A DNA stretch of 64,000 nucleotides. It comes from a phage. The position numbers and the translations under genes are program-made. Under the pieces are notes generated by a model. That model ran no database searches and was not told the origin of the DNA. It saw only the letters and a program-made list of their open reading frames with translations. Within the stretch, counting starts at the first letter, position 1, and each line of letters starts with the position of its first letter. The stretch lies in the NCBI GenBank assembly GCA_022897995.1, contig GCA_022897995.1_4763.1; one strand, 5' to 3'. Of this stretch, positions 547-49,014 are shown piece by piece.

Positions 547-581
547 TTGACATGAAAATGCGGTTATCCTATAATAACCGC
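547..581 (+). promoter_or_regulatory. sigma70-like early promoter with inverted repeat over the -10 (PeSL-type cassette)
   Basis: TTGACA 547-552, 17-nt spacer, TATAAT 570-575; inverted repeat GCGGTTAT/ATAACCGC 560-581. Confidence 0.6.
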
Positions 582-609
582 ATCAAATGAACGATGTGAG
601 GATTATATT

Positions 610-918
610 ATGTTTATCTCTTCTGCTACTCCAGTTAAAGTTTACGGCGAAACTGTGTATCTTCCGGCTGGCTATTGCTATGTTATCGTTGACCGTCACG
701 GTGTAGTGTATGCTTTTAAAGGACGTCCGGTTGAGATTGATTCTGAATATGGTACATGGGGATATAAAGCCGCATACATGGATATTCCTGATTTTGGAGT
801 ACGTTTAGGAAGATTTGATAACTATGTTAAACCATGCTTGATTAAGTATGCATCCTATGGTAAAACTGTTAAACCAAATAGCGTCGGCTGGATTGATGAC
901 GGCGTTAACGTGAAATAA
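610..918 (+). CDS. hypothetical protein
   Basis: ATG 610 after promoter cassette and GAGGATTATATT ribosome-binding context. Confidence 0.5.
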   Translation: MFISSATPVKVYGETVYLPAGYCYVIVDRHGVVYAFKGRPVEIDSEYGTWGYKAAYMDIPDFGVRLGRFDNYVKPCLIKYASYGKTVKPNSVGWIDDGVNVK

Positions 919-932
919 TGTGAGGTGAATTT

Positions 933-1226
933 ATGCTGTCTACTCGTAAAATGGTTGTTGGTGTCGCTGAAAATGCTTTAGAAATTGCTGATGAGGCTTT
1001 GACCGTCGCTTATGTTCGACGTGAAGAACTGCTACTGAAATACGCGGATCTATTGGTTGAACTGAAAGAGATTGCGAAAGCTGGTAAAAGCACGCTAGCA
1101 ACTGCCATTAAACTTTCTGATATTGGAGATGAGATCGTGGAGATCCACACTAAGATTAAAGAAGTAGAAAAATACTCTGAAATGCTGCGACATAATCTTG
1201 ATGAATTTGGGGTAAATCATGGCTAA
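933..1226 (+). CDS. hypothetical protein
   Basis: 97-aa ORF, GAGG upstream, helical composition. Confidence 0.45.
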   Translation: MLSTRKMVVGVAENALEIADEALTVAYVRREELLLKYADLLVELKEIAKAGKSTLATAIKLSDIGDEIVEIHTKIKEVEKYSEMLRHNLDEFGVNHG

Positions 1227-1440
1227 GGGACGATCTGGACGAGTTTTAACGCTGGCTGAACTGAGAGAAAAAGGATTAGATCCCGATTCTGTCGGTATCA
1301 GACCTGTTAATTACATTCTGTTTCTAGAGTGTACACTCTTTACTAATGCTCATCCAGCATTAAATGCACCACACTTTTATAAGTGCAATGACTTTAGCGG
1401 GTATATCGTTCCAGAATATTTCTTAGAATTTGATGATTAG
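1219..1440 (+). CDS. hypothetical protein
   Basis: 73-aa ORF overlapping the stop of the previous ORF. Confidence 0.4.
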   Translation: MAKGRSGRVLTLAELREKGLDPDSVGIRPVNYILFLECTLFTNAHPALNAPHFYKCNDFSGYIVPEYFLEFDD

Positions 1441-1726
1441 TATAAAACACTCACCGACCGGAAAGGGGTCGGTGATCTTTAATGATGATAAACCGTTAAT
1501 CTTGATTCGTAATGGTGACTGGACATTACACGATACCCGTGTTACTATCCATTCACCGCCTAAAGAGATTCAACGGGAATTGGTTAGGATTGCCCTAACC
1601 GACAAGCATAAAGAGGCGGTAGGCTATTCTCTTCTGAAATTGGGTGTTGACTTTCCTTTCGAGTATACGCTAACATTCAGAGAGCAGTCGGTGAAGCTAA
1701 CAGAGATTCTATTCTCTGAGATATGA
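1433..1726 (+). CDS. hypothetical protein
   Basis: ORF in frame of track 1430-1726; start uncertain; an 8-bp perfect hairpin (1452-1474) lies at its 5' end. Confidence 0.35.
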   Translation: MISIKHSPTGKGSVIFNDDKPLILIRNGDWTLHDTRVTIHSPPKEIQRELVRIALTDKHKEAVGYSLLKLGVDFPFEYTLTFREQSVKLTEILFSEI

Positions 1727-1736
1727 GGATTATATA

Positions 1737-2168
1737 ATGGTTTATCCAACTCCTAGTAAGATTTACATTGATGATACCCATTTTATGGTTGATATGATGG
1801 GTATAAAGTTTAGTGGTAATGTTAAAATTGTAGAATGGGAATTACACGGTCAACCTGTAACCGATTATGACCATTATATCCCTTTCGGTGGTGATGATAA
1901 CTTTGTTTCGTTTGACCATGAAGGTTACATGAACTTTGAGCAAGACGATGTACCTTTATATCTGGCAATGATGGATATTCCGACTAAAACAGAATATACA
2001 GAGGGTGATTGCGATTGTTGCGGATACTACAGCGTAACAGATATTAAGCTGCCATCCGGTAAAGAACTTTACAAAGAGGACCATTTCGGAAACTGCAATT
2101 TTCCTTGCGGTTGGCAAGAATTTTTCGAACTGGTAGAGATTGAGCGAACTTATTTGAGGAAGGGATAA
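1737..2168 (+). CDS. hypothetical Cys-rich protein
   Basis: 143-aa ORF with GAGGATTATATA ribosome-binding context; CDCCGY and CNFPCG clusters. Confidence 0.5.
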   Translation: MVYPTPSKIYIDDTHFMVDMMGIKFSGNVKIVEWELHGQPVTDYDHYIPFGGDDNFVSFDHEGYMNFEQDDVPLYLAMMDIPTKTEYTEGDCDCCGYYSVTDIKLPSGKELYKEDHFGNCNFPCGWQEFFELVEIERTYLRKG

Positions 2169-2980
2169 TGAAGAAAGCATTAGGTTTAATTCCCTATACG
2201 GGCAATAAGGAAAAGTTATTGCCTGGTGTTAGTAAGTATTTCCCTAAGCAATATAACCGCTTTGTCGATGCCTTTTGTGGTGGCTTGAGCGTGTCTCTGT
2301 ACGTAGAAGGGGATGTGCTGGCTAATGACTATGATCACCGCTTAATTGATGCTTACAAAGCGATTGACGAGTGTCCTGATCCGGTTTCTACGATCAAGCG
2401 TATTATTGCCGAGAATGGTTTGTCTCGCGAAGATAAAGACGCTTACATGACATTCCGTAAGAAGTATAACGAGAATCCAGATCCGCTATCGCTGTTTGTG
2501 TTGATTCAGCATAGTTTTAGCAACATTAACCGACATAACCGGAAGGGCGAATTTAATGCTAATTTTGGTCGCCGGACTTTTAACGAAAACGCGGTAGAGC
2601 GTGTCCTGAATTTTAAAGAAGAAAACAAAGACGGTCGAATCAATTTTACGTCTGGTCGTTATGACGAGATCGAGATCTTGCCTGGTGATTTCGTTTATTT
2701 GGACCCGCCGTACCTTATCACTTCTGCTGAATATAATAAGTTCTGGAGTGACGAGGAAGAGATTAAATTCTACCAGTGGGTAGAATCTATTATGGCGCGT
2801 GGTTTTCAGTTTGGTATCAGTAATGTCACACATCATAAGGGAAAGGTAAATGATCATCTTCTTGACTTTATCAAGCGGAATGATTTAAACTGCGTCCTGT
2901 TGAATAAGACCTATTGTCTAGATCGTTCAGGTGGCAAGTCTTCTGATACGCAAGAAGTTTATGTAACTAACGTAGATTGA
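2168..2980 (+). CDS. dam: DNA adenine methyltransferase (Dam)
   Basis: FCGGLSV (AdoMet motif I) and DPPY catalytic motif; co-linear with remembered T4 Dam. Confidence 0.85.
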   Translation: MKKALGLIPYTGNKEKLLPGVSKYFPKQYNRFVDAFCGGLSVSLYVEGDVLANDYDHRLIDAYKAIDECPDPVSTIKRIIAENGLSREDKDAYMTFRKKYNENPDPLSLFVLIQHSFSNINRHNRKGEFNANFGRRTFNENAVERVLNFKEENKDGRINFTSGRYDEIEILPGDFVYLDPPYLITSAEYNKFWSDEEEIKFYQWVESIMARGFQFGISNVTHHKGKVNDHLLDFIKRNDLNCVLLNKTYCLDRSGGKSSDTQEVYVTNVD

Positions 2981-2988
2981 GGTATAAC

Positions 2989-3270
2989 ATGGTAGAAATT
3001 TTTGGTTTTGAAGGTTACAACTGTAAGTATTGCCAGAATGCAAAGCGCCTTTGTGAATCGCGTAAGATCCCTTACATCTACATTCCGGTTAATGATGGTG
3101 TTGACGAAAACGGTCGCCCTGTAAAGATTGATTCTATCATTGCCGATATTCAGGATCGCGCAGGGGTAGAAGTTATTGCCACCATGCCGCAGATTTTCTA
3201 TAATGGTGATTATATTGGTGGCTTTGATGAGTTCCGATCCTTTGTAGTCAAAAACAAGATTAATGGTTAA
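2989..3270 (+). CDS. nrdC: phage thioredoxin/glutaredoxin NrdC
   Basis: CKYC redox motif, AKRL, TMPQIF...IGGFD; ATG 2989 after GAGG. Confidence 0.8.
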   Translation: MVEIFGFEGYNCKYCQNAKRLCESRKIPYIYIPVNDGVDENGRPVKIDSIIADIQDRAGVEVIATMPQIFYNGDYIGGFDEFRSFVVKNKING

Positions 3271-3294
3271 ATACCTTCTTTGGAGGGTGAATTT

Positions 3295-3768
3295 ATGTTA
3301 CTGACTGCTAAGAGTGCTAAAGAGTACAAACAAGAACTATTCGAAAAACAGGGGGGCATTTGCCCCCTTTGTCAATTGCCACTTTTTGAGGATATGAGCA
3401 AAAACCATCTTGACCACGACCACGATCTAGATGGGAAAGGGCAAGGCCGCGTAAGGGGATTGCTTCATTCGTGTTGCAACCGCCTAGAAGGATCGTTGAC
3501 CGGAGACTTTAAGCGGTTTGGTGTTGGTGCTTTAGGTGCTGATTTCGTTGTTTGGGCTACAAACTATGTTAATTACATCAAAGGAGACTACACCAACAAT
3601 CATTTACACCCTCAATATGCTGTTGATAAAATAAAACGATTTTCACGCTTGACACGCGCGGAAATGGTCGCTATTATGGACGCAGAAGGTTTCGATTACT
3701 GCGACGCTGATACAAGAGAAGAGATCACGAAGAAGTATAAGAAACAATTTATACAAAGATTAAGATAG
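3295..3768 (+). CDS. 49: recombination endonuclease VII (gp49)
   Basis: 157 aa; CPLC...HLDHDHDL...GLLHSCCN zinc/HNH-like core as in T4 endo VII; GGAGGG upstream. Confidence 0.85.
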   Translation: MLLTAKSAKEYKQELFEKQGGICPLCQLPLFEDMSKNHLDHDHDLDGKGQGRVRGLLHSCCNRLEGSLTGDFKRFGVGALGADFVVWATNYVNYIKGDYTNNHLHPQYAVDKIKRFSRLTRAEMVAIMDAEGFDYCDADTREEITKKYKKQFIQRLR

Positions 3769-3771
3769 TAA

Positions 3772-3807
3772 TTGACAATAAGAAATGGGAGTAGTAAAAT
3801 ACTCCCA
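3772..3807 (+). promoter_or_regulatory. early promoter with GGGAGTA/TACTCCC stem-loop (PeSL)
   Basis: TTGACA 3772-3777, 17-nt spacer, TAAAAT 3795-3800 inside inverted repeat 3787-3807. Confidence 0.6.
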
Positions 3808-3831
3808 TCTAATCAAGAAGGAGAATCAACA

Positions 3832-4104
3832 ATGCGTAAGATGTTTAAAGCTGGTGTTGCCTATGTTTTTAACTCTGAGCAAGCACGTAAAGACTTCTTA
3901 GAGGATGACTACGAAGGATTGAAAGATACCTACGAAGTCATCAAGAATGGATTTACTGTTCTTAAAGTGTCACCTATTGGTTATGTAAGTGAAATCTCGG
4001 TTGATGGGAAAACATATACCGCTAAAGACTTTGATCCGCGTTGGGAATTTATGCTGCTTCCGTGTGACCGCATTCTGTTTCGTGCTGTTCAATTAGTGAA
4101 ATGA
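3832..4104 (+). CDS. paralogue family member (KNGF(K/T)VL domain)
   Basis: Shares VIKNGFTVLKV...DGKTYTAKDF pattern with 4119-5921 ORFs. Confidence 0.5.
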   Translation: MRKMFKAGVAYVFNSEQARKDFLEDDYEGLKDTYEVIKNGFTVLKVSPIGYVSEISVDGKTYTAKDFDPRWEFMLLPCDRILFRAVQLVK

Positions 4105-4118
4105 TAGAGGATTATATT

Positions 4119-4679
4119 ATGGTACAGAAAACGTATAAATTGTATCCGGCTAAGTCTTCAAATGATGCTGTTTTTGAACGAGGTCGTTATTACACTTTCC
4201 GTAATGCTGAGTCCGCAGAGGAATTTGTTAAACGCTATCCACAACATAACAAGTTCCTGTATGGTGTGCTTCACAAGGGCTTTAAAGTTCTGACGGTTAA
4301 TGTTATGGGTAAAGTGTATTTGGTAGAAACTCATGATTATGAGGGCGCGTCAATCATGATTGATGCAAGCGAGCGCAAATACTTTAAACGCATCACTAAA
4401 AAGCAGTTTGAAGAAATGAAACCAGTTAAGAAAGAAGAATCTCTGGAAGATCTGATTAACTTGTTTGGTAAAGTTCGCTCTATCTCCTTTGCGATTGAAG
4501 ATGACATTACCGACAATAAAATCTTTATCAAGAACGCGGAAGACCTGAAAGAGTTCCTTATTGAAAATAGATCTCGGCTGGAAACCTTTCTTGAAAGTGA
4601 AATTATTCGACATGATACCTACGCTAAATTCAGCGCCGAGAAAGTGGAAGAACTGAAAGAGATTAAAAAGTCACTTTAA
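4119..4679 (+). CDS. paralogue family member (GFKVL / ERKYFKRI motifs, helical C-terminus)
   Basis: HKGFKVLTV and SERKYFKRITKKQFEEM match 4743-5921 (KNGFKVLEK, NERKYFKRISKEAYEAM). Confidence 0.55.
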   Translation: MVQKTYKLYPAKSSNDAVFERGRYYTFRNAESAEEFVKRYPQHNKFLYGVLHKGFKVLTVNVMGKVYLVETHDYEGASIMIDASERKYFKRITKKQFEEMKPVKKEESLEDLINLFGKVRSISFAIEDDITDNKIFIKNAEDLKEFLIENRSRLETFLESEIIRHDTYAKFSAEKVEELKEIKKSL

Positions 4680-4682
4680 CGC

Positions 4683-4718
4683 TTGACATGATGAAACGGG
4701 AGTAGTAAGATACTCCCA
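4683..4718 (+). promoter_or_regulatory. early promoter with GGGAGTA/TACTCCC stem-loop (PeSL)
   Basis: TTGACA 4683-4688, 17-nt spacer, TAAGAT 4706-4711; inverted repeat 4698-4718. Confidence 0.6.
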
Positions 4719-4742
4719 TCTAAACAACGAGAGGATTATATT

Positions 4743-5921
4743 ATGGCTAAATTCTTTGAAGGGCATTACTATGCATTCCGTGAAGGCGGTAAAGATGAGT
4801 TTCTAGACTTTTCTCGCTATTCAATTATTCTGACCGATGCTTCGCGCCGTGGTCATATTCGGGTTGCAGAAATTGTCAAAAACGGTTTTAAAGTATTAGA
4901 AAAAGATGACCACGGTCATGTTATTACTATTGAAGCTGGAGATGTAGTTTATTCCGCTAATGATATTGTGGATTATTGGGCTACTATGATTATGCACAAT
5001 GAGCGCAAATACTTTAAACGTATCTCAAAAGAGGCATACGAAGCGATGAACAAGAAAGAGGATGCAATGCCGACTTACTTTGAAAAAGGTAAATGTTATT
5101 CGTTTACCCCGGAAGGTTTGCAAGAATTTAAGCGATTCTGGGGAGATCATGATCCAGAGCACAAAGAAGCCATGAAACTTGTTGATTTTGTCGAATATGG
5201 CTTTTTAGTTGAAGAAGAATTTCACGGATCGGCTACCATGATCACCGCGAAAGGTGAAACTGTTAAGGCGGATCGTTTTTGTGAACAGTGGAATTGCTTG
5301 TTTGACGGTAGCGAATTTGAATACTTCGCAGAAATCACGAATCATCAATTTCGTTCTATGCAAGCAGATGGTCAGCGATTTAAAGTAGGCGAACGCTACA
5401 AGCCAAATCAGCATAATTTGCCTTATTGGTTTAACACTGAAACCGTATCCAGTCATGTTATTGAAATTGTTCAAAAGCTGGAACAGGGATTTAAGGTAAC
5501 TAAAGTAGATTCTTTCGGAAGTGTTGACGCGGTTGAAATTGATGGTGTAGAATATACACCGAAATCTTTCGGGCTTTGCTGGTATCACTTGATCAGCAAT
5601 GATGAACGTTATAACTTTGTTGAACTGCCATCTGAACCGGAAGAAGCACTAGAAGATCATGATCATCTGTCTGAACTGGTTAAACTGTTTGGCGATCTGC
5701 CGGATGGTGTAGGGGTGGCGGTAATGGGTGAAGGTGCTGTTATCCGAAACCTGAAAGACTTTAAAAAGTTCTTGATCGACATGCTGCCTAAACTCGATGA
5801 GAATCTAGATACAGATATTCAGAATCGCAAAGAAATTGTTAAAGAGACTGAAAAAGAGATCGAAGAGATTCGAGCAATTCGCCAGAAGGTGAAAGCAGTA
5901 AAGAAAAAAGTTAGTGCTTGA
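4743..5921 (+). CDS. paralogue family member with internally duplicated domain
   Basis: Two copies of the GFKV..V..DG / ER(K)Y(F) unit (residues ~40-100 and ~240-290) plus coiled-coil tail. Confidence 0.55.
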   Translation: MAKFFEGHYYAFREGGKDEFLDFSRYSIILTDASRRGHIRVAEIVKNGFKVLEKDDHGHVITIEAGDVVYSANDIVDYWATMIMHNERKYFKRISKEAYEAMNKKEDAMPTYFEKGKCYSFTPEGLQEFKRFWGDHDPEHKEAMKLVDFVEYGFLVEEEFHGSATMITAKGETVKADRFCEQWNCLFDGSEFEYFAEITNHQFRSMQADGQRFKVGERYKPNQHNLPYWFNTETVSSHVIEIVQKLEQGFKVTKVDSFGSVDAVEIDGVEYTPKSFGLCWYHLISNDERYNFVELPSEPEEALEDHDHLSELVKLFGDLPDGVGVAVMGEGAVIRNLKDFKKFLIDMLPKLDENLDTDIQNRKEIVKETEKEIEEIRAIRQKVKAVKKKVSA

Positions 5922-5951
5922 CATGCGAAGGGAGTATGCTATAATACTCCC
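5918..5951 (+). promoter_or_regulatory. early promoter with GGGAGTA/TACTCCC stem-loop (PeSL)
   Basis: TTGACA 5918-5923, 16-nt spacer, TATAAT 5940-5945 inside the inverted repeat. Confidence 0.6.
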
Positions 5952-5975
5952 ACTTAACAACGAGAGGATTATATT

Positions 5976-6470
5976 ATGTGGGTACAAGATGTTTGGTATA
6001 CTGTAACTAAAGAAAACCTTGACGCATTCAGCGACCAATCTTGCGCTAATAGCTCAATTGCTGATATTCTTGAAGATGTTTTTGGCGGTGTAGATAAAAT
6101 TCGTTTTAAAGTTGTTGTTAATTCTATGGGGTGTGTAAAAGACCTATATACCGATGATAAAGACCTTGATCTTAAACTTCATCTTCGTATTGAGAATGCA
6201 AGTCTAGGTTATTGGTTTGAAGATAACGAATATGAATACTTCACCCCAGCAATTAAAGTTTTTGCAACTAAACTGGAAGCTGTACTGAATCTACGACCAA
6301 TTAATGTTGACGGTTACATTATCAAAAATATTCAGGAGTGGGATTCATATCTAGATCAGATTATCCGAAATAGTAAGCAGGAAGCCGCTAATAAGAAGCG
6401 ACAAGAGATCAAACAACTGAAAGCTGAACTGGAAGCGGCGGAAAAAGAATTAGCAGAACTGGTAAAATAA
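5976..6470 (+). CDS. hypothetical protein with C-terminal coiled coil (possible family member)
   Basis: 164-aa ORF after promoter cassette; KIRFKVVV...EYEYF resembles the family pattern weakly. Confidence 0.45.
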   Translation: MWVQDVWYTVTKENLDAFSDQSCANSSIADILEDVFGGVDKIRFKVVVNSMGCVKDLYTDDKDLDLKLHLRIENASLGYWFEDNEYEYFTPAIKVFATKLEAVLNLRPINVDGYIIKNIQEWDSYLDQIIRNSKQEAANKKRQEIKQLKAELEAAEKELAELVK

Positions 6471-6480
6471 CTATCAACGA

Positions 6481-6501
6481 GCGGGAGAAATCCCGCTTTT
6501 T
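6481..6501 (+). terminator. stem-loop with U-tract (intrinsic terminator-like)
   Basis: GCGGGA-GAAA-TCCCGC followed by TTTTT. Confidence 0.5.
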
Positions 6502-6514
6502 CATAGGTGATACA

Positions 6515-8377
6515 ATGGAAAAACTAATCAAAGACATTACAGAGATCGCAACGGGTAAAGAAAACGAAGTAAGCAAAGAGAACGCGAACAAAGACGCGCG
6601 AACATTCCCGACACGTCGAGATCTGATTGCTGGTGCTGTGTCTAAACAGATTGCTAAAACCGTGTTACCTGAGCACATCTATAAAGCGCATGTAGACGGT
6701 GACATTCATTATCATGATATGGATTATGCACCCGCTATGCCGTTTACTAACTGCTGTCTTGTTAATCTCAAAGACATGTTAGAGAATGGTTTTAAATTGG
6801 GTAGTGCACAAATCGAAAGTCCGAAATCAATCGGCGTTGCTTGTGCTGTAACCGCTCAAATTATCGCACAGGTGGCAAGTCATCAATATGGCGGGACCAC
6901 AATTGCAAACATCGATCAGGTGTTAGCACCGTATGTTGAGAAAACATATCATAAACACCTTGCCGATGCCGAAACCTACGGAATCAAAGCTGATACTCTC
7001 TATGCACAAGAGAAGACAGAAAAAGAAACGCTAGACGGATATCAGGCGTTGGAATATGAGATCAACACTTTGTTCTCTACCAATGGTCAAACGCCTTTTG
7101 TGACTTTAACATTTGGTATGGGTACTAGCTGGGAAGAAAAACTGATTCAGAAAGCGATCCTGAACGTTCGAACTAAAGGTTTAGGTAAAGATGGTATCAC
7201 TCCGGTGTTTCCTAAGCTGGTGATGTTCTTAGAAGAAGGATTAAACCTTAAACCGGAAGATCCGAACTACGACATTAAGCAACTTGCATTGGAATGTTCT
7301 AGTAAGCGTCTTTACCCTGATTATATCTCTGCGAAGAATAACCGTAGTATCACTGGATCTAGTGTTCCGGTTAGCCCGATGGGTTGTCGTAGCTTCCTGG
7401 GTGTGTGGCATAATGAGAAAGGCGAAGAAGTATTAGACGGACGTAATAACTTGGGTGTTGTGACTCTGAATCTTCCGCGTATTGCTCTTATTGCCGCGCG
7501 TCGTGCTGGTAAAGCGTCTGTAATGCGCAGAATTGAGCTATTCGAACAAGAGCTAGCTAATCGTATGCCTATTTGTTTTGATGCTCTCATGAGTCGCGTA
7601 GACGCTTTAAAAGGAGCTAAAGCCAATGTTGCTCCTGTACTGTATACCGAAGGTGCATTTTTCCGTATTCATCAAAACGATGAAATTTTGGAAGTGCTGA
7701 AAGATGGTCGCGCTAGTATCTCTCTTGGTTATATTGGTTTACATGAGGTATTGAGCGTCCTGTTTGGTGTTCATCCGTTTGATTCGGAAGATGCGCAGCG
7801 ATACGGTAAACATATTCTTAAGATCTTGCGTCATTATACTGAAAAATGGAAGGACGAAACCGGACTTGGGTTTAGTCTTTACGGTACGCCAGCCGAGAGC
7901 CTTTGCTATCGATTTAATCGACTGGACCGAGAGCAATTTGGTATTGTTAAGGGTGCTACCGATAAAGACTGGTACACCAACTCATTTCACCTTGACGTAG
8001 ACCGGAAGGTTACACCGTTTGAGAAAATCGACTTTGAGAAAGATTATCACTGGCTGGCGTCCGGTGGCATGATCTCTTATGTTGAGTTCCCGGACATGAA
8101 AAACAACCTGAAAGGTCTTGAAACTGTAGTAGACTATGCAATGGATAAATTGCACTACTTCGGTGTTAATACCCCTTCTGATGTGTGTCATGTATGCGGA
8201 TCTACTAAGGAAATGAGAGCGACCGAGTTTGGTTTTGTTTGTCCTGATTGCGGCAATGATAATCTGGAAAAAATGAATGTTATCCGTCGCGTTAGTGGAT
8301 ATCTTGGATCTGTTGATCTGCGTCCATTCAACCACGGGAAACATTCCGAGATGGTAAACCGCGTTAAGCACATGTAA
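6515..8377 (+). CDS. nrdD: anaerobic ribonucleoside-triphosphate reductase NrdD
   Basis: 620 aa; class III RNR with C-terminal glycyl-radical RVSGYLG and Cys-rich zinc site; uninterrupted. Confidence 0.95.
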   Translation: MEKLIKDITEIATGKENEVSKENANKDARTFPTRRDLIAGAVSKQIAKTVLPEHIYKAHVDGDIHYHDMDYAPAMPFTNCCLVNLKDMLENGFKLGSAQIESPKSIGVACAVTAQIIAQVASHQYGGTTIANIDQVLAPYVEKTYHKHLADAETYGIKADTLYAQEKTEKETLDGYQALEYEINTLFSTNGQTPFVTLTFGMGTSWEEKLIQKAILNVRTKGLGKDGITPVFPKLVMFLEEGLNLKPEDPNYDIKQLALECSSKRLYPDYISAKNNRSITGSSVPVSPMGCRSFLGVWHNEKGEEVLDGRNNLGVVTLNLPRIALIAARRAGKASVMRRIELFEQELANRMPICFDALMSRVDALKGAKANVAPVLYTEGAFFRIHQNDEILEVLKDGRASISLGYIGLHEVLSVLFGVHPFDSEDAQRYGKHILKILRHYTEKWKDETGLGFSLYGTPAESLCYRFNRLDREQFGIVKGATDKDWYTNSFHLDVDRKVTPFEKIDFEKDYHWLASGGMISYVEFPDMKNNLKGLETVVDYAMDKLHYFGVNTPSDVCHVCGSTKEMRATEFGFVCPDCGNDNLEKMNVIRRVSGYLGSVDLRPFNHGKHSEMVNRVKHM

Positions 8378-8382
8378 TTTTC

Positions 8383-8415
8383 AGCCGATCCGAAAGGGTC
8401 GGCTTTTTCGTTTTT
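8383..8415 (+). terminator. intrinsic terminator
   Basis: AGCCGATCC-GAAAG-GGTCGGCT hairpin followed by TTTTTCGTTTTT. Confidence 0.7.
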
Positions 8416-8420
8416 AGGTG

Positions 8421-8448
8421 TTGACAACCTGATTAGCTCATGTATAAT
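8421..8448 (+). promoter_or_regulatory. sigma70-like early promoter
   Basis: TTGACA 8421-8426, 16-nt spacer with TG, TATAAT 8443-8448. Confidence 0.6.
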
Positions 8449-8479
8449 GCTCACATTGAAACAACGAGAGGATAACATT

Positions 8480-9016
8480 ATGTTTTGTGTATTGAATAAA
8501 GAAATTAAAATTCGTAAACTGGAAATTGGTGATGGTGTCGTTGTTAAAATGCACGCCAGCACACTGGCTAGCTTTGGTACAAAAGAAAGTTTCTTTATTA
8601 TGGGAACGGTTGTTAATATCTGCTGGAGTAAAGGCGAAGGCACACAAATCCGTAGCTTTTGTGTCGTTGACGAAGATAATAACCTGTATGTGATTCGCTA
8701 TCAGAATCAATCTGTGTTGGTTTATACCGACAATTCACGAGAACTGTATACGCTGGACTTTGCTAAACTGTGTGATTGTGATAAAAAGATTCAGGCGTAC
8801 CACACAGAAGGCTGTTTTGGTGTTGGCGTCGAAGAGGAAGAGTACATCCCATTGGAAGTTGGGACAGAAATTAAACATAGTGCCACGGATCGTATTTTTA
8901 CGGTTGTCGCTGTTAATGCAACTCAATTTGTAGCACAAGCGCATAATACGGGATTCGTTATCTATGACATTGGTAATGCAAGTTCTCATTTTGATGGCGT
9001 ACAATTTCGTTTATAA
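8480..9016 (+). CDS. hypothetical protein
   Basis: ATG 8480 after GAGAGGATAACATT ribosome-binding context. Confidence 0.5.
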   Translation: MFCVLNKEIKIRKLEIGDGVVVKMHASTLASFGTKESFFIMGTVVNICWSKGEGTQIRSFCVVDEDNNLYVIRYQNQSVLVYTDNSRELYTLDFAKLCDCDKKIQAYHTEGCFGVGVEEEEYIPLEVGTEIKHSATDRIFTVVAVNATQFVAQAHNTGFVIYDIGNASSHFDGVQFRL

Positions 9017-9563: not shown

Positions 9564-9592
9564 TTGACGGGGATCGCGAGATCCCCTATACT
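9564..9592 (+). promoter_or_regulatory. early promoter with GGGGATC/GATCCCC stem-loop (PeSL)
   Basis: TTGACG 9564-9569, 17-nt spacer, TATACT 9587-9592. Confidence 0.55.
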
Positions 9593-9634
9593 ATATTCAT
9601 CAAGACGAGATACAACTTTACAGGAGAATCAAAT

Positions 9635-16720: not shown

Positions 16721-16749
16721 TTGACGCGGGGAGAAATCCCCGTTATACT
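16721..16749 (+). promoter_or_regulatory. early promoter with GCGGGGA/TCCCCG stem-loop (PeSL)
   Basis: TTGACG 16721-16726, 17-nt spacer, TATACT 16744-16749. Confidence 0.55.
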
Positions 16750-16774
16750 CTCTAAAAATTGATTGGAGGTTGTT

Positions 16775-20847: not shown

Positions 20848-21534
20848 ATGAAACTGACTAAAGAAACCATTGCTACCCTGAAAAACTTTTCCGCTATTAA
20901 CCCAGGTATCATCCTGAAAAAAGGAAACGTCCTGATCACCAAAAACATGACAAACGTTGTATATGGTGAAGCGACTCTGAATCAAGAACTGGAACACGAA
21001 ATCGGGATCTATGATCTTAACTCTTTCCTGGGCATTCTGAATCTGGTAGGCGATGAAGCAGATATTACGGTTGATGACCGCACTGGTAACATTCGTGTGT
21101 CTAACGACCGTCTGAAAATTAATTATCCTGGTGCTAGTGCTGCTGCTATCGTATCACCGAAAGGCCGAGTTACTCCACCTGCAAGCGATGTAGATTACGA
21201 ACTGAGCAACGACGATCTGAAACAGCTTATGAAAATGAGCAATCAGCTTAAAGTGGATCGCCTTGAATTTCTTCCGATTGATGGTCGTCTGATGATCAAA
21301 GGTTGGGAAGAGATTGACAAAAATAATCCTAATGAGATGTTTTGTCTTGATATGGGCGAATATACCGGAACCGCAGACTTCCATTTCTTTATTCGTAAAG
21401 ATAACATGAAACTGGTTGCTACTGACTTCGGCGATTACAAACTTAGCTTCACTCGCCGTAAGGCTGTATGGCTGGCAAGTGAAACCGTATCTTATATGAT
21501 CGCGTGTGACCTTGACTCCAGCTACACCGACTAA
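20848..21534 (+). CDS. 45: sliding clamp gp45
   Basis: 228 aa; MKLTKETIATLKNF N-terminus matches remembered T4 gp45 (MKLSKDT...). Confidence 0.85.
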   Translation: MKLTKETIATLKNFSAINPGIILKKGNVLITKNMTNVVYGEATLNQELEHEIGIYDLNSFLGILNLVGDEADITVDDRTGNIRVSNDRLKINYPGASAAAIVSPKGRVTPPASDVDYELSNDDLKQLMKMSNQLKVDRLEFLPIDGRLMIKGWEEIDKNNPNEMFCLDMGEYTGTADFHFFIRKDNMKLVATDFGDYKLSFTRRKAVWLASETVSYMIACDLDSSYTD

Positions 21535-21566
21535 TATAATGTTTGTGGGGAGTGTAAATACTCCCC
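21512..21566 (+). promoter_or_regulatory. early promoter followed by GGGGAGTG/TACTCCCC stem-loop (PeSL)
   Basis: TTGACT 21512-21517, 17-nt spacer, TATAAT 21535-21540; inverted repeat 21547-21566. Confidence 0.55.
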
Positions 21567-21599
21567 GTTTTAATGATGTAATTTGTGAGAGGTGATTAT

Positions 21600-23516: not shown

Positions 23517-23536
23517 GATACTGATGGGATAGGGGT

Positions 23537-23566
23537 ATTGACAAACTAGGTCGATTCCCCTATAAT
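23537..23566 (+). promoter_or_regulatory. sigma70-like early promoter for gene 43
   Basis: TTGACA 23537-23542, 18-nt spacer, TATAAT 23561-23566; flanking AGGGGTA/TTCCCCT inverted repeat. Confidence 0.55.
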
Positions 23567-23598
23567 GAGTGTCTTTCGTAAATGAAGGAGTTTATATT

Positions 23599-25914: not shown

Positions 25915-27391
25915 GTATCCATCAATCATCCGTCAGGTTAACATTTCGCCGGAAACAATCGCCGGATCTTTTGATGCTGCACCGATGCACGAGTATATCA
26001 ATAAAACTGCACCACGTCCGAGTGATGAGTATTCTTGCTCGCCTAACGGATGGATGTATCGAAAAGATATTCATGGTATCGTACCGATTGAGATTAAAAA
26101 GGTATTCGATCAGCGTAAGCAGTACAAAAACATGATGTTGGCGTGTGATCGCAATGCTGAACTCTGTAAAGCGATTCTACACGATGAAAATCATGTTTAC
26201 GGGGGAACCATTAGCTATAGCGTTGAAGTTCGTCACGACTTCGATGAAGCGTTTAAATCTATGCTTTCGGAATTAAGCAAAGATGCCTTAGAGAAATTGC
26301 TGGAAGAATGTAAAGACGAGTCGATCTTGTGCAATACAAACCAGCTTTCTCGAAAAGTTTTGATCAACTCCCTTTATGGTGCGTTGGGGAATCCTAAATT
26401 CCGTTTTTATGATCTCCGTAACGCTAGTGCGATCACCTTGTTTGGTCAGCTTGCAATTCAGTGGATTGAGCGTAAGATTAACGAATACTTAAACGAGCTT
26501 TGCGGAACAACCGATTTTGCATATGTTCGTTATTGTGATACTGACTCCGTTTATGTGCTGGTTAACAATGTTGTTGATAAGGTTGGCGGGGAAGACCGTT
26601 TCGACGATACCGAAAAACTTGTTGACTTCCTTGATAATTTCGGTAAACATCGAATGGAACCTATTATCGACAAGGGATATCGCGAGTTATGCGAGTACAT
26701 GAACAACTATGAGCACTTGATGTTTATGGACCGCGAGGCAATTGCTGGTCCTCCGTTGAAATCTGCGGGTATCGGTGGATTCTGGACGGGTAAAAAACGC
26801 TATGCTCTTAATGTTTGGGATATGGAAGGAACGCGCTTTGCTGAGCCTAAGCTAAAAATCATGGGCTTGGAAACGCAACGTAGCTCCACCCCTAAAGCAT
26901 GTCAGAAATCACTGAAAGAATGTATTCGCCGTATGTTGCAGGAAGGTGAAGAGTCATTGCAGGAATATTACGGTATTTTTGAGCAAGAGTTTAGAAAACT
27001 TGACTATCTTGAGGTTGCTGCGGTATCATCTGCAAACAACCTACAGAAATACAGCGATTCAAACGGGTATCCGATTAAGGGTTGTCCGTATGCGGTTAAG
27101 AGTGTATTGTGCTATAATCGTAATGCTCGAAAATTCGGACTAGATCCGATTCGTGAGGGCGAGAAGGTTATGATTGTACCGCTTAAAGACCGAAATCCGT
27201 TTGGAGAAATCTGTTTTGGTTGGTTGTCCGGTACTCGTATTCCGCCAGAAATTGAATCAGAGGTGTTAAAGTGGTTGGACTGGCCTTTGTTGTTTAATAA
27301 GACTTTCGTCAAACCACTGGAGAACATTACCACGGCTGCAAAGCTGCAATATGAAAAGGTGGCATCGCTTACGGACCTGTTTGACATTTAA
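25915..27391 (+). CDS. 43: DNA polymerase gp43, exon 2 (palm/fingers/thumb)
   Basis: YPSIIRQVNISPET..., KILINSLYGALGN, YCDTDSVYV (motif C) in frame from 25916. Confidence 0.85.
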
Positions 27392-27452
27392 GATAAAGTG
27401 TGTATAATGGCGGGTGTTGGGTGACGATACCCGCCAACGTGAGAAATATACT

Positions 27453-27652: not shown

Positions 27653-28723
27653 ATGTCTGTACTTGAAAAACTGAAAAAGAACTCTACCCTGAAAACTACT
27701 TCGGTACTGTCTAAATCCAGCTTCTTTAACGAAAAAACAAATACTCGCACTAAGATCCCGATGCTGAATATTGCGTTTTCAGGTGATCTTAAAAAAGGAT
27801 TTCAATCTGGTCTGATTTTCTTTGCTGGTCCGTCTAAGCACTTTAAATCAAACATGGGATTAACTTGTGTTAGTGCATACATGAAACAGAATCCTGATGC
27901 GGCGTGTTTGTTCTTTGATTCTGAGTTCGGTATTACACCCGCTTATCTTGAATCTATGGGTGTAGATCCTGATCGCGTGGTGCATGTTCCAATCAAGAAC
28001 ATCGAAGAACTTAAATTTGAAATCATGAACCAGCTTGAGCAAATTACCCGTGAAGATAAAGTGATCATCTTTATTGACTCAATCGGTAACTTAGCAAGTA
28101 AAAAAGAAGTTGAAGACGCGATTAATGAGAAATCCGCACAGGATATGACGCGAGCGAAAGCACTTAAAGGCTTGTTCCGTATGGTTACGCCGTATCTGAC
28201 TATGAATGATATCCCGTGCATCGCTATTAACCACACTTACGAAACGCAAGAAATGTTTAGTAAGACCGTTATGTCCGGCGGTACGGGCGCGATGTATTCA
28301 GCCAATGAAGTTTTCATTATTGGTCGTCGTCAGCAGAAAGAAGGAACCGAAATTACTGGTTATGATTTTATCCTGAATGCGGAAAAATCACGAACCGTTA
28401 AAGAAAAATCGAAGTTCCCGATTAGCGTAACATTTAGCGGTGGCATCGATCCTTATTCCGGCTTGCTGGAATTGGCTGTAGAGTTAGGTTGGGTAGTGAA
28501 ACCGTCAAACGGCTGGTATTCTCGTTCCATCCTGAATACTGAGACCGGAGAGATGGAAACCGAAGAACGCAAGTTCCGTGCTAAAGAAACCAATAGCATT
28601 GAGTTCTGGAAACCACTTCTGACAAACGATAAGTTTAACGAAGCAATCAACGATCATTATAAGCTGGGGCAAGTGATCAGCGACGAAGCAGTTGACAAAG
28701 AAATCGAAGATATGTTAGCATAA
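27653..28723 (+). CDS. uvsX: recombinase UvsX (RecA-like)
   Basis: KIPMLNIAFSGDLKKGFQSGLIFFAGPSKHFKSN, CIAINHTYETQEMFSKTVMSGGTG match remembered T4 UvsX. Confidence 0.95.
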   Translation: MSVLEKLKKNSTLKTTSVLSKSSFFNEKTNTRTKIPMLNIAFSGDLKKGFQSGLIFFAGPSKHFKSNMGLTCVSAYMKQNPDAACLFFDSEFGITPAYLESMGVDPDRVVHVPIKNIEELKFEIMNQLEQITREDKVIIFIDSIGNLASKKEVEDAINEKSAQDMTRAKALKGLFRMVTPYLTMNDIPCIAINHTYETQEMFSKTVMSGGTGAMYSANEVFIIGRRQQKEGTEITGYDFILNAEKSRTVKEKSKFPISVTFSGGIDPYSGLLELAVELGWVVKPSNGWYSRSILNTETGEMETEERKFRAKETNSIEFWKPLLTNDKFNEAINDHYKLGQVISDEAVDKEIEDMLA

Positions 28724-28733
28724 CTATGGTAGT

Positions 28734-28757
28734 AAAGGGGCTACGTGCCCCTTTTTC
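28734..28757 (+). terminator. intrinsic terminator
   Basis: AAAGGGGC-TACGT-GCCCCTTT followed by TTTTC. Confidence 0.6.
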
Positions 28758-28778
28758 ATATCTAGAGAGGATTATATT

Positions 28779-34266: not shown

Positions 34267-34320
34267 TTGACGCTACTCTATAATGGTTTTATTATGCCTC
34301 CCGTCGAAAGATTGGAGGCT
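34267..34320 (+). promoter_or_regulatory. early promoter plus 5'-UTR hairpin that includes the Shine-Dalgarno
   Basis: TTGACG 34267-34272, 17-nt spacer, TATTAT 34290-34295; GCCTCC...GGAGGC hairpin 34296-34320 then TTTTTTATT ATG. Confidence 0.45.
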
Positions 34321-34328
34321 TTTTTATT

Positions 34329-34835: not shown

Positions 34836-34866
34836 TTGACAGCACAAACCAGATAGACAATAATAC
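34836..34866 (+). promoter_or_regulatory. sigma70-like early promoter
   Basis: TTGACA 34836-34841; A/T-rich -10 region about 17 nt downstream. Confidence 0.45.
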
Positions 34867-34893
34867 ACACATACCAACTAAGGAGAATCAATT

Positions 34894-40728: not shown

Positions 40729-40767
40729 TTGACATAAAAGGGAGATTCTCTATAATGGGAGTCTCCC
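40729..40767 (+). promoter_or_regulatory. early promoter with GGGAGA/TCTCCC stem-loop (PeSL)
   Basis: TTGACA 40729-40734, 16-nt spacer, TATAAT 40751-40756; hairpin followed by TTTTCTTTT. Confidence 0.6.
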
Positions 40768-40790
40768 TTTTCTTTTATGAGGATTAAACA

Positions 40791-41096: not shown

Positions 41097-41131
41097 TTGA
41101 CACCGGATCGGGGATATATCATAATGTCCCC
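41097..41131 (+). promoter_or_regulatory. early promoter with GGGGATAT/ATGTCCCC stem-loop (PeSL)
   Basis: TTGACA 41097-41102, 17-nt spacer, CATAAT 41120-41125. Confidence 0.55.
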
Positions 41132-41155
41132 ATCGAAAACAAAAGGTTGACTTAT

Positions 41156-41350
41156 ATGAAACCGTTTAAGAATGAAGAAACTCAAAAATTTTGTGAAAAA
41201 ATTGCAGAAATCTACTTGACAGGGAATAAGGAAAAAGCTAATATTATGTTCAAAGAGTCAGTTTCCATGATGAAAGTAGCACGCTGGGAACTGATCGCAA
41301 TGCAAGACCAAATTCGTTATCTAGTAACAAAGGAGAATCAAAATGCGTAA
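41156..41350 (+). CDS. hypothetical protein
   Basis: ATG 41156 downstream of promoter; 64 aa. Confidence 0.4.
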   Translation: MKPFKNEETQKFCEKIAEIYLTGNKEKANIMFKESVSMMKVARWELIAMQDQIRYLVTKENQNA

Positions 41351-44071: not shown

Positions 44072-44133
44072 TTCTGGTATAATGATGTGAATCGGGCGGC
44101 GATAGTCGCCCAACTAATAGAGGAATGAATACT

Positions 44134-45467: not shown

Positions 45468-45475
45468 TCAACATA

Positions 45476-45498
45476 GGCCGCTTTGCGCGGCCTTTCTT
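45476..45498 (+). terminator. stem-loop with short U-tract
   Basis: GGCCGC-TTTGC-GCGGCC then TTTCTT. Confidence 0.4.
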
Positions 45499-48142: not shown

Positions 48143-48152
48143 CTGATTATTA

Positions 48153-48178
48153 AGCCGATCCGTGTGGTCGGCTTTTTT
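48153..48178 (+). terminator. intrinsic terminator
   Basis: AGCCGATCC-GTGTG-GTCGGCT then TTTTTT; near-identical stem to 8383-8404. Confidence 0.7.
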
Positions 48179-48192
48179 ATTTTAAAAAGTTG

Positions 48193-48221
48193 TTGACTTC
48201 CATAATCCATCATTGCATAAT
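48193..48221 (+). promoter_or_regulatory. sigma70-like early promoter
   Basis: TTGACT 48193-48198, 17-nt spacer, CATAAT 48216-48221. Confidence 0.5.
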
Positions 48222-48254
48222 ACACACCCATACCAAACGAAAGGAGAATCAAAG

Positions 48255-48527
48255 ATGAGCAACGAAAACAGCAAAGTGTTAGCAATTGCCGATAAAGTAG
48301 GTTACTGGAAATGTTGGGATGATATGGAGAAATTAGGCGGTCGATATCTCGATAACTTAGAGTTGCATTATTGCCAAGCGCGTAATGCAGAAGTTGCGGG
48401 AGTAGCAATTGAAGATATTCCGTCTAAGGTCTTCGGATTCTCTAAAGATGATACTTTAGAATATGTTTTCAAGGCTGTTATGGATCAAGCATGGGAAGAC
48501 GCAGAGACACGCGCTCTTGATTGGTGA
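48255..48527 (+). CDS. hypothetical protein
   Basis: ATG 48255 after AAGGAGAATCAAAG. Confidence 0.4.
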   Translation: MSNENSKVLAIADKVGYWKCWDDMEKLGGRYLDNLELHYCQARNAEVAGVAIEDIPSKVFGFSKDDTLEYVFKAVMDQAWEDAETRALDW

Positions 48528-48531
48528 TAAT

Positions 48532-48693
48532 ATGAACTGGTATAAAATTTGGAAAAATCAGGTGGAGGCTTATCTAGGGTATAAGCCCACCGACAAAGAA
48601 TTACTTGATGCAATGTACGAAGACGGCTTAAATCCGAAAGTAGCCGCGCAAGAATACGCGGAATGGGTGAAGGTCGAAAATAATTTAAAATAG
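48532..48693 (+). CDS. small hypothetical protein
   Basis: 53-aa ORF (MNWYKIWKNQ...). Confidence 0.3.
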   Translation: MNWYKIWKNQVEAYLGYKPTDKELLDAMYEDGLNPKVAAQEYAEWVKVENNLK

Positions 48694-48696
48694 TTG

Positions 48697-48731
48697 TTGA
48701 CGTAAAGAAATGGGAGTAGTATTATACTCCC
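48697..48731 (+). promoter_or_regulatory. early promoter with GGGAGTA/TACTCCC stem-loop (PeSL)
   Basis: TTGACG 48697-48702, 17-nt spacer, TATTAT 48720-48725. Confidence 0.6.
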
Positions 48732-48758
48732 ACACCGAAACGAAAGAAGGAGAATCAC

Positions 48759-48971
48759 ATGAAATCTATTGAGCAAGTAGTAACAGAATTTATGAGCTAC
48801 GAAGGAAACCGCATCTTTGGACGTTCTCAAGTTCGCGAGATCGTAGAAGAAGTTGCGGGAGAGTTTGCGGAATCTGGTCACGTTATCACGCAAGAACGTA
48901 AAGAAGAAGCAGTAAGCCAGATCATGGCTATGCAGAAAATGCGTATTAATGCACGAGCGGGTAAAAATTAA
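48759..48971 (+). CDS. hypothetical protein
   Basis: 70-aa ORF after AAGGAGAATCACAT. Confidence 0.4.
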   Translation: MKSIEQVVTEFMSYEGNRIFGRSQVREIVEEVAGEFAESGHVITQERKEEAVSQIMAMQKMRINARAGKN

Positions 48972-48978
48972 AAAGTAG

Positions 48979-49014
48979 TTGACACCGGATTATGGGAGTA
49001 GTAAGATACTCCCA
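48979..49014 (+). promoter_or_regulatory. early promoter with GGGAGTA/TACTCCC stem-loop (PeSL)
   Basis: TTGACA 48979-48984, 17-nt spacer, TAAGAT 49002-49007; hairpin identical to 4698-4718. Confidence 0.6.

Follow-up and report, generated by a model that had tools for sequence, protein, structure and literature searches.

Does the early region of a T4-type phage carry repeated units of a promoter and a stem-loop, and are these the mobile regulatory cassettes that have been proposed to drive modular shuffling in such phages? The question is raised by a stretch of 64,000 nucleotides of phage DNA (contig GCA_022897995.1_4763.1 of the NCBI GenBank assembly GCA_022897995.1), hereafter called the window. 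A prediction made from its letters alone had described at least 16 such units between positions 547 and 49,014 and had likened them to promoter-early stem-loops (PeSLs). We find that the units are very probably PeSLs, the composite regulatory cassettes of phages RB49 and phi1, in another Krischvirus genome. Since these cassettes are already known in the same lineage, this is a rediscovery and not a new element.

The window comes from a Krischvirus, an RB49-like T4-type coliphage with 95-97% identity to UPWr_E1, JSE, RB49, and Phi1. Megablast searches with positions 3000-9000 and 1-25000 retrieved about 60 Krischvirus phages of Escherichia and Shigella, which aligned over the full length at 94-97% identity. 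UPWr_E1 was the top match, and RB49, Phi1, and JSE were among the matches. Judged by these alignments, the window is a new isolate of the RB49-like lineage. From position 1 to about 52100, the plus strand carries T4-type early and replication genes (dam, nrdC, 49, nrdD, nrdG, 55, 47, 46, 45, 44, 62, regA, 43, uvsX, 41, 61, 56, modB, srd, dda, dexA, 39, rIIA, rIIB, and 52) interleaved with small open reading frames (ORFs) of unknown function. The minus strand carries holin and tail-fibre genes at 52117-63371.

To count as a cassette, an intergenic region had to contain both a plus-strand promoter agreeing with TTGACA-N16-18-TATAAT at 10 or more of its 12 positions and a single hairpin with a folding energy of -10 kcal/mol or lower. 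Exactly 16 cassettes were found between 547 and 49041, in line with the number predicted, and the two copies that had been singled out (4683-4718 and 48979-49014) are both where they had been placed. The cassettes are named below by the start of their -35 element (Table 1). Each fills a gap of 54-112 nt that separates one early gene from the next. In 10 of the 16, the -35 starts 0-7 nt past the upstream stop codon; the spacer is always 16 or 17 nt long, and the predicted start site, 7 nt past the -10, precedes the start codon by 19-53 nt (24-28 nt in 12 cassettes). Every leader has GAGG, GGAG, or AGGA ahead of the start codon. The 20 nt upstream of the -35 have a mean A+T content of 70%, against 59% in the window, and reach at least 65% in 12 cassettes, whereas the copies at 21512, 23538, and 27381 lack an AT-rich upstream stretch.

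The position of the hairpin is more variable than had been thought. The -10 had been placed in or beside a perfect inverted repeat; the repeat indeed overlaps the -10 in 9-10 of the 16 cassettes, but in the rest it lies elsewhere, namely in the spacer (9564, 16721), upstream of the -35 (8421, 48193), or downstream of the -10 in two or three copies (21512, 34267, and 27381). The hairpin at 23529-23563 also covers the -35. Folding energies range from -10.4 to -22.5 kcal/mol. In half of the cassettes (8/16) the hairpin ends within -1 to +2 of the predicted start site, which makes its 3' arm (e.g., TACTCCC) the discriminator region of the promoter. The early promoter consensus of RB49, which agrees with 5'-end mapping, has a preference for C at -3 to -1 (PMC1524935), and this matches the ACTCCC 3' arms. 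In 13 of the 16 cassettes the complete hairpin cannot form in the RNA of its own promoter and can only form in RNA arriving from upstream. The two stem families named in the original prediction are both present, GGGAGTA..TACTCCC at 3787, 4698, 5930, 48712, and 48994, and GGGGA..TCCCC at 9569, 16728, and 41110, together with a related stem, GGGGAGT..ACTCCCC, at 21547.

Some copies are closely alike, if less so than first reported. Near-identity over about 40 nt between 4683-4718 and 48979-49014 was an overstatement, as 28 of 36 bases are common: the two have an identical TTGACA and an identical block of 23 nt (GGGAGTAGTAAGATACTCCCATC), and the 9 nt between these differ. The 48979 copy is a mosaic, whose 5' half resembles the 41097 cassette and whose 3' half resembles the 4683 cassette (repeat families D3 and D4). 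The initiation context GAGGATTATATTATG, said to follow many copies, is a genuine repeat, with 14 copies at up to two mismatches against 0.25 expected, but it is found behind just four cassettes (547, 4683, 5918, and 48979). With only 4 of its 14 copies behind a cassette, it was rejected as a cassette part. Its sites (598-612, 1725, 4107, 4731, 5964, 8468, 11288, 12756, 17303, 28767, 41808, 49030, 50136, and 63432) are largely independent of the promoter cassettes. A second repeated start context, AGGAGAATCA(A/C)NNATG, has four copies and is found behind other cassettes.

Promoters and hairpins of this kind are in large excess over chance. In positions 1-52100, 24 sites on the plus strand and none on the minus strand match the promoter consensus at 11 or more of 12 positions, compared with 0.96 +/- 0.92 in dinucleotide-preserving shuffles. 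For perfect matches (12/12), the counts are eight, zero, and 0.05, respectively. The cassette promoters are all on the plus strand, all have at least 10 matches, and 6 of the 16 have all 12. Intergenic DNA, which amounts to 2716 nt or 5.2% of the region, holds 23 of the 40 uninterrupted hairpins of -10 kcal/mol or below, and in 12 of the 16 cassette intergenic regions the fold has a z-score of -2.4 or lower relative to shuffles of the same region. When repeats were searched without bias, the top five families all corresponded to parts of cassettes: the start context, a block spanning the -10, the 3' arm, and the leader, and a block with the AT-rich stretch, the -35, and the hairpin.

The elements defined as PeSLs, 52 in phi1 and 51 in RB49, have promoters of the sigma-70 consensus, AT-rich DNA upstream of the -35 that includes or comes after the preceding stop codon, and a stem-loop at one of five possible positions (Arbiol, Comeau, Kutateladze, Adamia, Krisch 2010, Genome Biol Evol 2:140; PMC2839356). 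They are preferentially located in hyperplastic regions just ahead of ORFans, and go along with insertions, deletions, or replacements between close relatives, where junctions have chimeric PeSLs. In the same study, a reporter driven by PeSL206/205 reached around 13,000 Miller units, a PeSL adjoined 10 of 14 differential ORFs, and mini-circles with a chimeric PeSL were detected experimentally in both phages (PMC2839356). Promoter activity, termination by one stem-loop, and the mini-circles are taken from this literature, and the anatomy, statistics, orthology, and recombination footprints come from the present analysis. The identification as PeSLs is upheld by the fact that the window belongs to the lineage in which they were defined and that each of its cassettes has a counterpart at the same position in RB49 and Phi1. 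At the level of sequence, every defining feature of the RB49/phi1 PeSL is present and the loci are orthologous. The likeness extends to the near-perfect TTGACA-N17-TATAAT promoters with AT-rich upstream DNA, the G-run/C-run stem-loops in the same range of positions, the placement between stop codon and Shine-Dalgarno sequence, and the association with insertions and deletions (indels) of ORFans. The difference lies only in the content of cassette-led ORFs, as ORF263 and its cassette are missing from the window, which retains the ORF059/060 pair absent from KFS-EC.

To follow the cassettes across relatives, we aligned the early region of the window with the syntenic regions of UPWr_E1, RB49, Phi1, JSE, kaaroe, KFS-EC, and SSG23 by chained blastn. 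Fifteen of the 16 cassettes align across five relatives, including RB49 and Phi1, with very few substitutions. The remaining one, 48979, aligns from the -35 onward, with a breakpoint just upstream. In the RefSeq record of RB49 the orthologs of 21512, 23538, and 27381 are annotated as "hypothetical early promoter". Stem changes among the orthologs in these five relatives consist of two A-to-G substitutions in the 547 hairpin, each on one side of the stem only and still paired as G-U, and one change of a closing pair in Phi1; the five differ too little for statistics on covariation. A scan of IMG/VR for a promoter together with a GGGAGTA hairpin returned three contigs, all Krischvirus-like, and nothing outside the genus.

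If cassettes exchange genes, they should lie where the gene content of relatives changes, and this is what the comparison gives. Among 20 indel or replacement events relative to the seven relatives, 7 have a boundary inside a cassette, against 0.97 expected, and none of 10,000 permutations reached 7. KFS-EC lacks 3816-4683, a segment of two genes, and has in its place a single chimeric cassette, which matches 3772 in its upstream part and 4683 in its hairpin, leader, and start context. At 48961-48990, all seven relatives have a cassette, a small ORF (ORF263 in RB49), and another cassette, where the window has the single cassette 48979, with the junction inside the common AAAAGTAG-TTGACA stretch. 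As read from these alignments, both are clean footprints of cassette-by-cassette recombination. At 48218-48258, UPWr_E1 and SSG23 have one more ORF together with a cassette. At 48675-48689, kaaroe and SSG23 are both longer by around 500 bp, which in kaaroe amounts to two extra cassette-led ORFs. In JSE, the ORF immediately downstream of the 41097 cassette is missing, and the break comes just past the hairpin. JSE also has a 586-bp insertion of the homing-endonuclease type that ends at the -35 of the 40729 cassette, and a homing-endonuclease replacement whose right boundary, at 34275, is at the -35 of the 34267 cassette.

The association with genes that T4 lacks is looser than claimed. The cassettes had been said to flank exactly the genes without a counterpart in T4. 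Using tblastn of the 93 early-strand gene products against the T4 genome, we found a counterpart for 36 products and none for 57. Thirteen of the 16 cassettes precede genes without a counterpart, yet 44 of these 57 genes have no cassette directly upstream, and the three other cassettes stand ahead of the T4 core genes 44, 43, and modB. The claim of an exact match thus does not hold; the enrichment is weak, with an odds ratio of 3.25 (Fisher p=0.09). Cassettes cluster in three stretches (0.5-9.6 kb, 40.7-41.2 kb, and 48.2-49.0 kb), and none lies in the ORFan block at 49.8-52.1 kb.

How would such a unit work? Past the upstream stop codon and 0-7 nt of AT-rich sequence, a cassette has a near-consensus sigma-70 -35 and -10, which the host RNA polymerase would use right after infection. 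The predicted start site follows at about 7 nt, and a leader that contains a strong ribosome-binding site connects it to the start codon. The GC-rich inverted repeat over or beside the promoter ends in most copies at or before the predicted start site, and is therefore absent from the RNA of that promoter and present in read-through RNA. On the latter, the hairpin may end or attenuate the upstream transcript, shield its 3' end, or both, and the promoter would restart transcription, so that each block of genes is insulated. Copies with 20-50 nt of near-identity would allow crossovers by the homologous recombination of the phage, by which the genes they lead may be deleted, inserted, or swapped, with the cassette providing expression signals at the new position. 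The recombination role would need nothing beyond phage homologous recombination. The crossovers lie inside common sequence, and all the clean cassette-by-cassette events belong to the GGGAGTA class, in which the identity is longest (23-48 nt).

Whether the hairpins terminate transcription depends on the copy. A T-run follows the hairpin in four cassettes (8383, 34296, 40736, and 48152), and in these the terminator role is convincing by sequence; it is not for the main GGGAGTA class. Full termination is likely where a T-run is present, and there only. For the hairpins in general, we commit to an action on read-through RNA, as terminator, attenuator, or 3'-end protector, with the promoter re-initiating; the role of those lacking a T-run we infer. 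Selection on RNA is suggested by G-U pairs in 13 of the 24 intergenic hairpins, which become A-C mismatches on the other strand, and by several GAAA tetraloops. When each strand was optimised separately, the sense fold was stronger in 16 regions and the antisense fold in 7 (p=0.017; 24 intergenic hairpins). An initial test had given 21 against 2 (p=0.0003), but it was biased by the preselection of hairpins on the plus strand and is superseded by the separate optimisation. A scan of the window against Rfam gave no match at the gathering score, and hence no member of a curated RNA family. Published maps of transcript ends in Krischvirus were also sought in the literature, and none that could be used came up.

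Several observations weigh against the identification of these units as PeSLs or against parts of their proposed working. Around 13 plus-strand promoter matches of equal strength are found within genes and have no hairpin, a hairpin is also missing at one intergenic promoter (34836), and eight intergenic hairpins have no promoter. The pairing of promoter and hairpin is therefore frequent but not obligatory, and the case of 34836 indicates that an early promoter can do without a stem-loop here. In UPWr_E1 and kaaroe, a variant of the 48697-type cassette (in kaaroe at around 52880-52960 of the composite sequence) has its left arm replaced (TTGACGCCAAAGGTCATCGGTAGTATTATACTCCC), which abolishes the hairpin and keeps the promoter; this speaks for crossovers inside cassettes and for a hairpin that is dispensable at some sites. 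Thirteen of the 20 indels are not at cassettes. These include homing endonucleases (in nrdD of JSE, RB49 ORF040, KFS-EC gp182, and two in the window), paralog exchanges (10316-10819, 37537-37658), and mosaics within genes (9070-9236, 11554-11614, 49443-49842). In 12 of the 16 cassettes the hairpin has no T-run, and in the GGGAGTA class it is followed by ATC.., CAC.., or ACT.., unlike an intrinsic terminator. Finally, the strand asymmetry is not significant among the 16 cassettes alone (11 against 5, p=0.09), and the GGGAGTA class has no sense-strand folding advantage.

Part of this would fit ordinary transcriptional punctuation, in which independent signals overlap in a compact genome and are alike by convergent selection, with indels necessarily ending in intergenic DNA. 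A hairpin is found in nearly every gap of at least 40 nt (16-17 gaps have both signals, eight a hairpin only, and one a promoter only), strong promoters occur within genes without hairpins, most indels are unrelated to cassettes, and the enrichment ahead of non-T4 genes is weak. Such punctuation nevertheless seems improbable to us, as the cassettes resemble each other beyond functional need: a block of 23 nt is identical at sites 44 kb apart, and families of 48 nt have 73-83% identity that includes spacer and leader bases. Convergence also fits poorly with the chimeric cassettes at the junctions of relatives, where the crossover lies inside common sequence, with the chimeric mini-circles of RB49 and phi1 (PMC2839356), and with the indels of complete genes other than homing endonucleases, of which five in seven touch cassettes although these occupy only 16 of about 92 gene junctions. 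A less unlikely alternative, which we would hold as a tentative possibility, concerns the hairpins lacking a T-run: these may be signals for protection or processing of RNA 3' ends that block 3'-to-5' exonucleases and stabilise the upstream message, and not terminators. The hairpins lie 15-40 nt past the stop codon of the preceding gene, the downstream transcript does not include them, most have no T-run, and the G-U pairs and GAAA loops of many intergenic hairpins point to selection at the RNA level. The sole published termination test concerns a single stem-loop, PeSL211/210, but this one cut downstream lacZ as strongly as rrnB T1 (PMC2839356), and the lack of a sense-strand advantage in the GGGAGTA class also speaks against protection.

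The inverted repeats could instead act as DNA, as a cruciform or as the site of a phage protein (e.g., endonuclease VII, a recombinase, or a repressor) that targets recombination or early shut-off. Arbiol et al. speculated on a specific DNA-binding protein (PMC2839356), and the arms of GGGAGTA-N6-TACTCCC are perfectly symmetrical and conserved in sequence among paralogs. The motif occurs in a promoter context only in the three Krischvirus-like contigs of IMG/VR, and all clean cassette-by-cassette events involve this class. On the other hand, the other stems are unrelated (ATGCGGTTAT, GGGGATC, AAAAGGGAGATTCTC, and others), so that no single sequence-specific protein would read them all, and many contain G-T pairs that are A-C mismatches on the other strand. 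The crossovers lie in the AT-rich/-35 stretch or anywhere in the common block, as plain homology predicts, the longest common identity and not a particular site accounts for the recombination of the GGGAGTA class, and no recombinase gene is known in these genomes. A DNA-level role for the repeats is accordingly very unlikely in our view. The same low credence applies to GGGAGTA-N6-TACTCCC taken by itself as a DNA-level recognition structure (cruciform or protein-bound repeat) and not a terminator, a reading based on its missing T-run, its 3' arm being the discriminator, its symmetry, its conservation among paralogs, and its confinement to the genus. If true, this structure would steer recombination to cassettes, in an integron-like way without known integrase, or switch early promoters off.

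PeSLs thus remain the best account of the cassettes, and comparison with other systems places them within the RB49 type. The PeSLs of T4/PST and KVP40/nt-1 (Comeau, Arbiol, Krisch 2014; PMC4122927) also combine a promoter and a stem-loop between early genes, in hyperplastic regions and with differential ORFs. They differ in their promoters (TTTACW-N17-TAYWAT or TTGYVH-N17-TAWWAT) and stems (AGNA..TCNT or A3-4G3..C3T3-4) (PMC4122927), whereas the cassettes of the window follow the RB49 type, with its sigma-70 consensus and stems of the form G(n)..C(n). We found no follow-up on PeSLs since 2014 in the searchable literature. Lambdoid morons (Hendrix et al. 2000) are similarly single extra genes with their own promoter and terminator, but in the window it is the repeated regulatory sequence itself that provides homology for exchange. 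Integron cassettes resemble the PeSLs in being small promoter-dependent gene cassettes with imperfect inverted repeats at their bounds (attC), and circular intermediates have been reported for PeSLs. However, integrons need an integrase and structured single-stranded attC sites, while the window has no known integrase, its stems are heterogeneous, and its crossovers look like plain homology. Finally, the intrinsic (Rho-independent) terminators of E. coli are likewise GC-rich hairpins after a gene, and four cassettes and several promoterless hairpins have the T-run, but the other 12 cassettes do not and most hairpins overlap the -10 and discriminator of a promoter.

Table 1. Putative PeSL cassettes of the window and two related regions. 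Promoters are given as -35, spacer length in nt, and -10; hairpin energies are in kcal/mol.
Feature	Coordinates (strand)	-35 start	Promoter	Hairpin	Gene driven	Remarks
PeSL	547..609 (+)	547	TTGACA-17-TATAAT	558-583, ATGCGGTTAT..ATAACCGCAT, -12.1, overlapping -10	ORF 610-918, no T4 homolog	leader end is GAGGATTATATTATG; fold z -2.81; conserved in 5 relatives
PeSL	3772..3831 (+)	3772	TTGACA-17-TAAAAT	3785-3808, GGGAGTA type, -13.1, overlaps -10, ends at predicted start site	ORF 3832-4104	
PeSL	4683..4742 (+)	4683	TTGACA-17-TAAGAT	4698-4717, -10.4	ORF 4743-5921, frd.2/goF-like in RB49 annotation	leader end is GAGGATTATATTATG
PeSL	5918..5975 (+)	5918	TTGACA-16-TATAAT (12/12)	5930-5951, GGGAGTAT..ATACTCCC, -11.8		leader/start context as in 4683 cassette
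PeSL, terminator-upstream class	8383..8479 (+)	8421	TTGACA-16-TATAAT	8383-8404, -16.0, GAAA loop, then TTTTCGTT	ORF 8480-9016	hairpin after nrdD
PeSL	9564..9634 (+)	9564	TTGACG-17-TATACT	9569-9586, GGGGATC..GATCCCC, -12.5, fills -35/-10 spacer	ORF 9635-9787	
PeSL	16721..16774 (+)	16721	TTGACG-17-TATACT	16726-16743, GCGGGGA gaaa TCCCCGT, -12.3, in spacer	ORF 16775-17026	after gene 47
PeSL	21512..21599 (+)	21512	TTGACT-17-TATAAT, within gene 45 end	21547-21566, GGGGAGTG..TACTCCCC, -12.1, then GTTTTAAT, starts at predicted start site	gene 44 (T4 core gene)	
PeSL	23529..23598 (+)	23538	TTGACA-17-TATAAT (12/12)	23529-23563, interrupted, -16.5, from -35 to -10	gene 43	fold z -3.57
PeSL	27381..27452 (+)	27381	TTGACA-16-TATAAT (12/12), overlapping gene 43 end	27408-27436, -21.4, 2 G-U pairs, just 3' of -10	ORF 27453-27641	fold z -3.79
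PeSL	34267..34328 (+)	34267	TTGACG-17-TATTAT	34296-34319, -13.8, then TTTTTTAT	modB	canonical terminator shape
PeSL	40729..40790 (+)	40729	TTGACA-16-TATAAT (12/12)	40736-40771, 15 bp, -22.5, then CTTTTATG, encloses -10	ORF 40791-41090	fold z -3.88
PeSL	41097..41155 (+)	41097	TTGACA-17-CATAAT	41106-41134, GGGGATAT..GTCCCC, -12.7, overlaps -10	ORF 41156-41350 (ORF004 homolog)	
PeSL, terminator-upstream class	48152..48254 (+)	48193	TTGACT-17-CATAAT	48152-48174, -12.0, then TTTTTATTT	ORF 48255-48527	
PeSL	48697..48758 (+)	48697	TTGACG-17-TATTAT	48711-48732, GGGAGTA type, -12.0, ends at predicted start site	ORF 48759-48971	
PeSL	48979..49041 (+)	48979	TTGACA-17-TAAGAT	48992-49015, -13.1	ORF 49042-49842	chimeric copy
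Borderline case	28692..28778 (+)		TTGACA-18-TAGCAT (10/12, weak), within uvsX end	28734-28754, terminator, GGGGC..GCCCC TTTTT		hairpin and GAGGATTATATTATG ahead of gene 40; KFS-EC has a homing endonuclease inserted at 28761-28765
Promoter-only intergenic region	34836..34893 (+)		TTGACA-17-AATAAT	none		ahead of srd

Around 14 further sigma-70 matches of 11-12 out of 12, again only on the plus strand, lie inside coding sequence (3176, 3649, 10162, 12453, 15232, 19689, 19807, 20707, 29817, 38809, 41711, 43669, 44558, and 50024). Those at 12453 and 38809 have a hairpin and most others do not; a few orthologs are hypothetical early promoters in the RefSeq record of RB49. By these matches, internal early promoters may be numerous. 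Strong hairpins with no promoter next to them were found between genes at 1451-1475, 6479-6498, 14515-14544, 15614-15641, 28734-28754, 30512-30527, 44094-44111, 45475-45493, and 52087-52112. Several have GAAA loops and T-runs, and they are plausibly plain terminators. The last one separates the early genes from the late ones, two blocks that converge there, and with T-runs on both strands it probably terminates transcription in both directions.

The comparison with relatives also revealed differences away from the cassettes. Gene 43 (DNA polymerase, 23599-27391) is divided into two ORFs (23599-24807 and around 25985/26054-27391) by an insertion of 1.1 kb (24790-25914), which encodes an intact HNH homing endonuclease at 24950-25774 (PHROG 12434, E=1e-130; weak similarity to T4 mobC). 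The gene is uninterrupted in UPWr_E1, RB49, Phi1, kaaroe, KFS-EC, and SSG23. JSE has the same split, but lacks the equivalent of 25043-25688, which is most of the endonuclease ORF. No Rfam match indicated a group I intron in the split gene. Another insertion, of 552 bp (32134-32685), lies between a small ORF and the primase gene 61 and is absent from all seven relatives; the product of its ORF (32139-32693) is an HNH/NUMOD4 homing endonuclease of 184 aa (Pfam NUMOD4 E=3e-7; PHROG 59 E=1.5e-31). On the minus strand, the tail-fibre tip module (52807-56694) is unlike that of the relatives. It consists of a 922-aa gp37 followed by a gp38-type adhesin (53110-53889; Pfam GP38 E=5e-68), and no such adhesin is annotated after the distal tail-fibre gene in RB49, Phi1, JSE, kaaroe, UPWr_E1, or KFS-EC. 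In the five relatives aligned there, 53100-56174 gave only short matches at 69-75% identity, and the difference is likely a host-range swap.

Paralogous runs of early genes occur at 10291-11848 and 4119-5921. The starts of the ORFs at 10823 and 11300 are 75% identical over 69 nt, and within ORF 11300-11848 each of the seven relatives has an additional 260-308 bp. ORFs 4119-4679 and 4743-5921, both goF-like in the annotation of RB49, have a common 50-nt block at 78% identity (4371-4420 and 5001-5050). KFS-EC lacks 10316-10819, approximately ORF 10291-10818, with an overlap of around 30 nt at the junction, which points to recombination between similar gene starts. A direct repeat of 58 bp with 86% identity (37480-37537, 37658-37715) brackets the small ORF 37534-37710, a homolog of phi1 ORF009.1 present in the window and Phi1 and absent from the other six relatives. 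The arrangement resembles a partial duplication, in tandem, of the ORF next to it and not a cassette-mediated gain. An apparent 5-kb insertion at the start of the window in kaaroe, PTE-Eco09, and others was discarded as an artefact of alignment joining, as kaaroe is collinear from base 1 in the chained alignment.

These results add further examples and statistics to a published model and bring no new concept. What the window contributes, across seven further genomes, is two clean footprints and a significant excess of breakpoints at cassettes, together with the observation that most hairpins lack a T-run, unlike canonical terminators. Few concrete mechanisms have been proposed by which large lytic phages may gain, lose, and shuffle small accessory genes that are still expressed and insulated, and PeSLs are among them.

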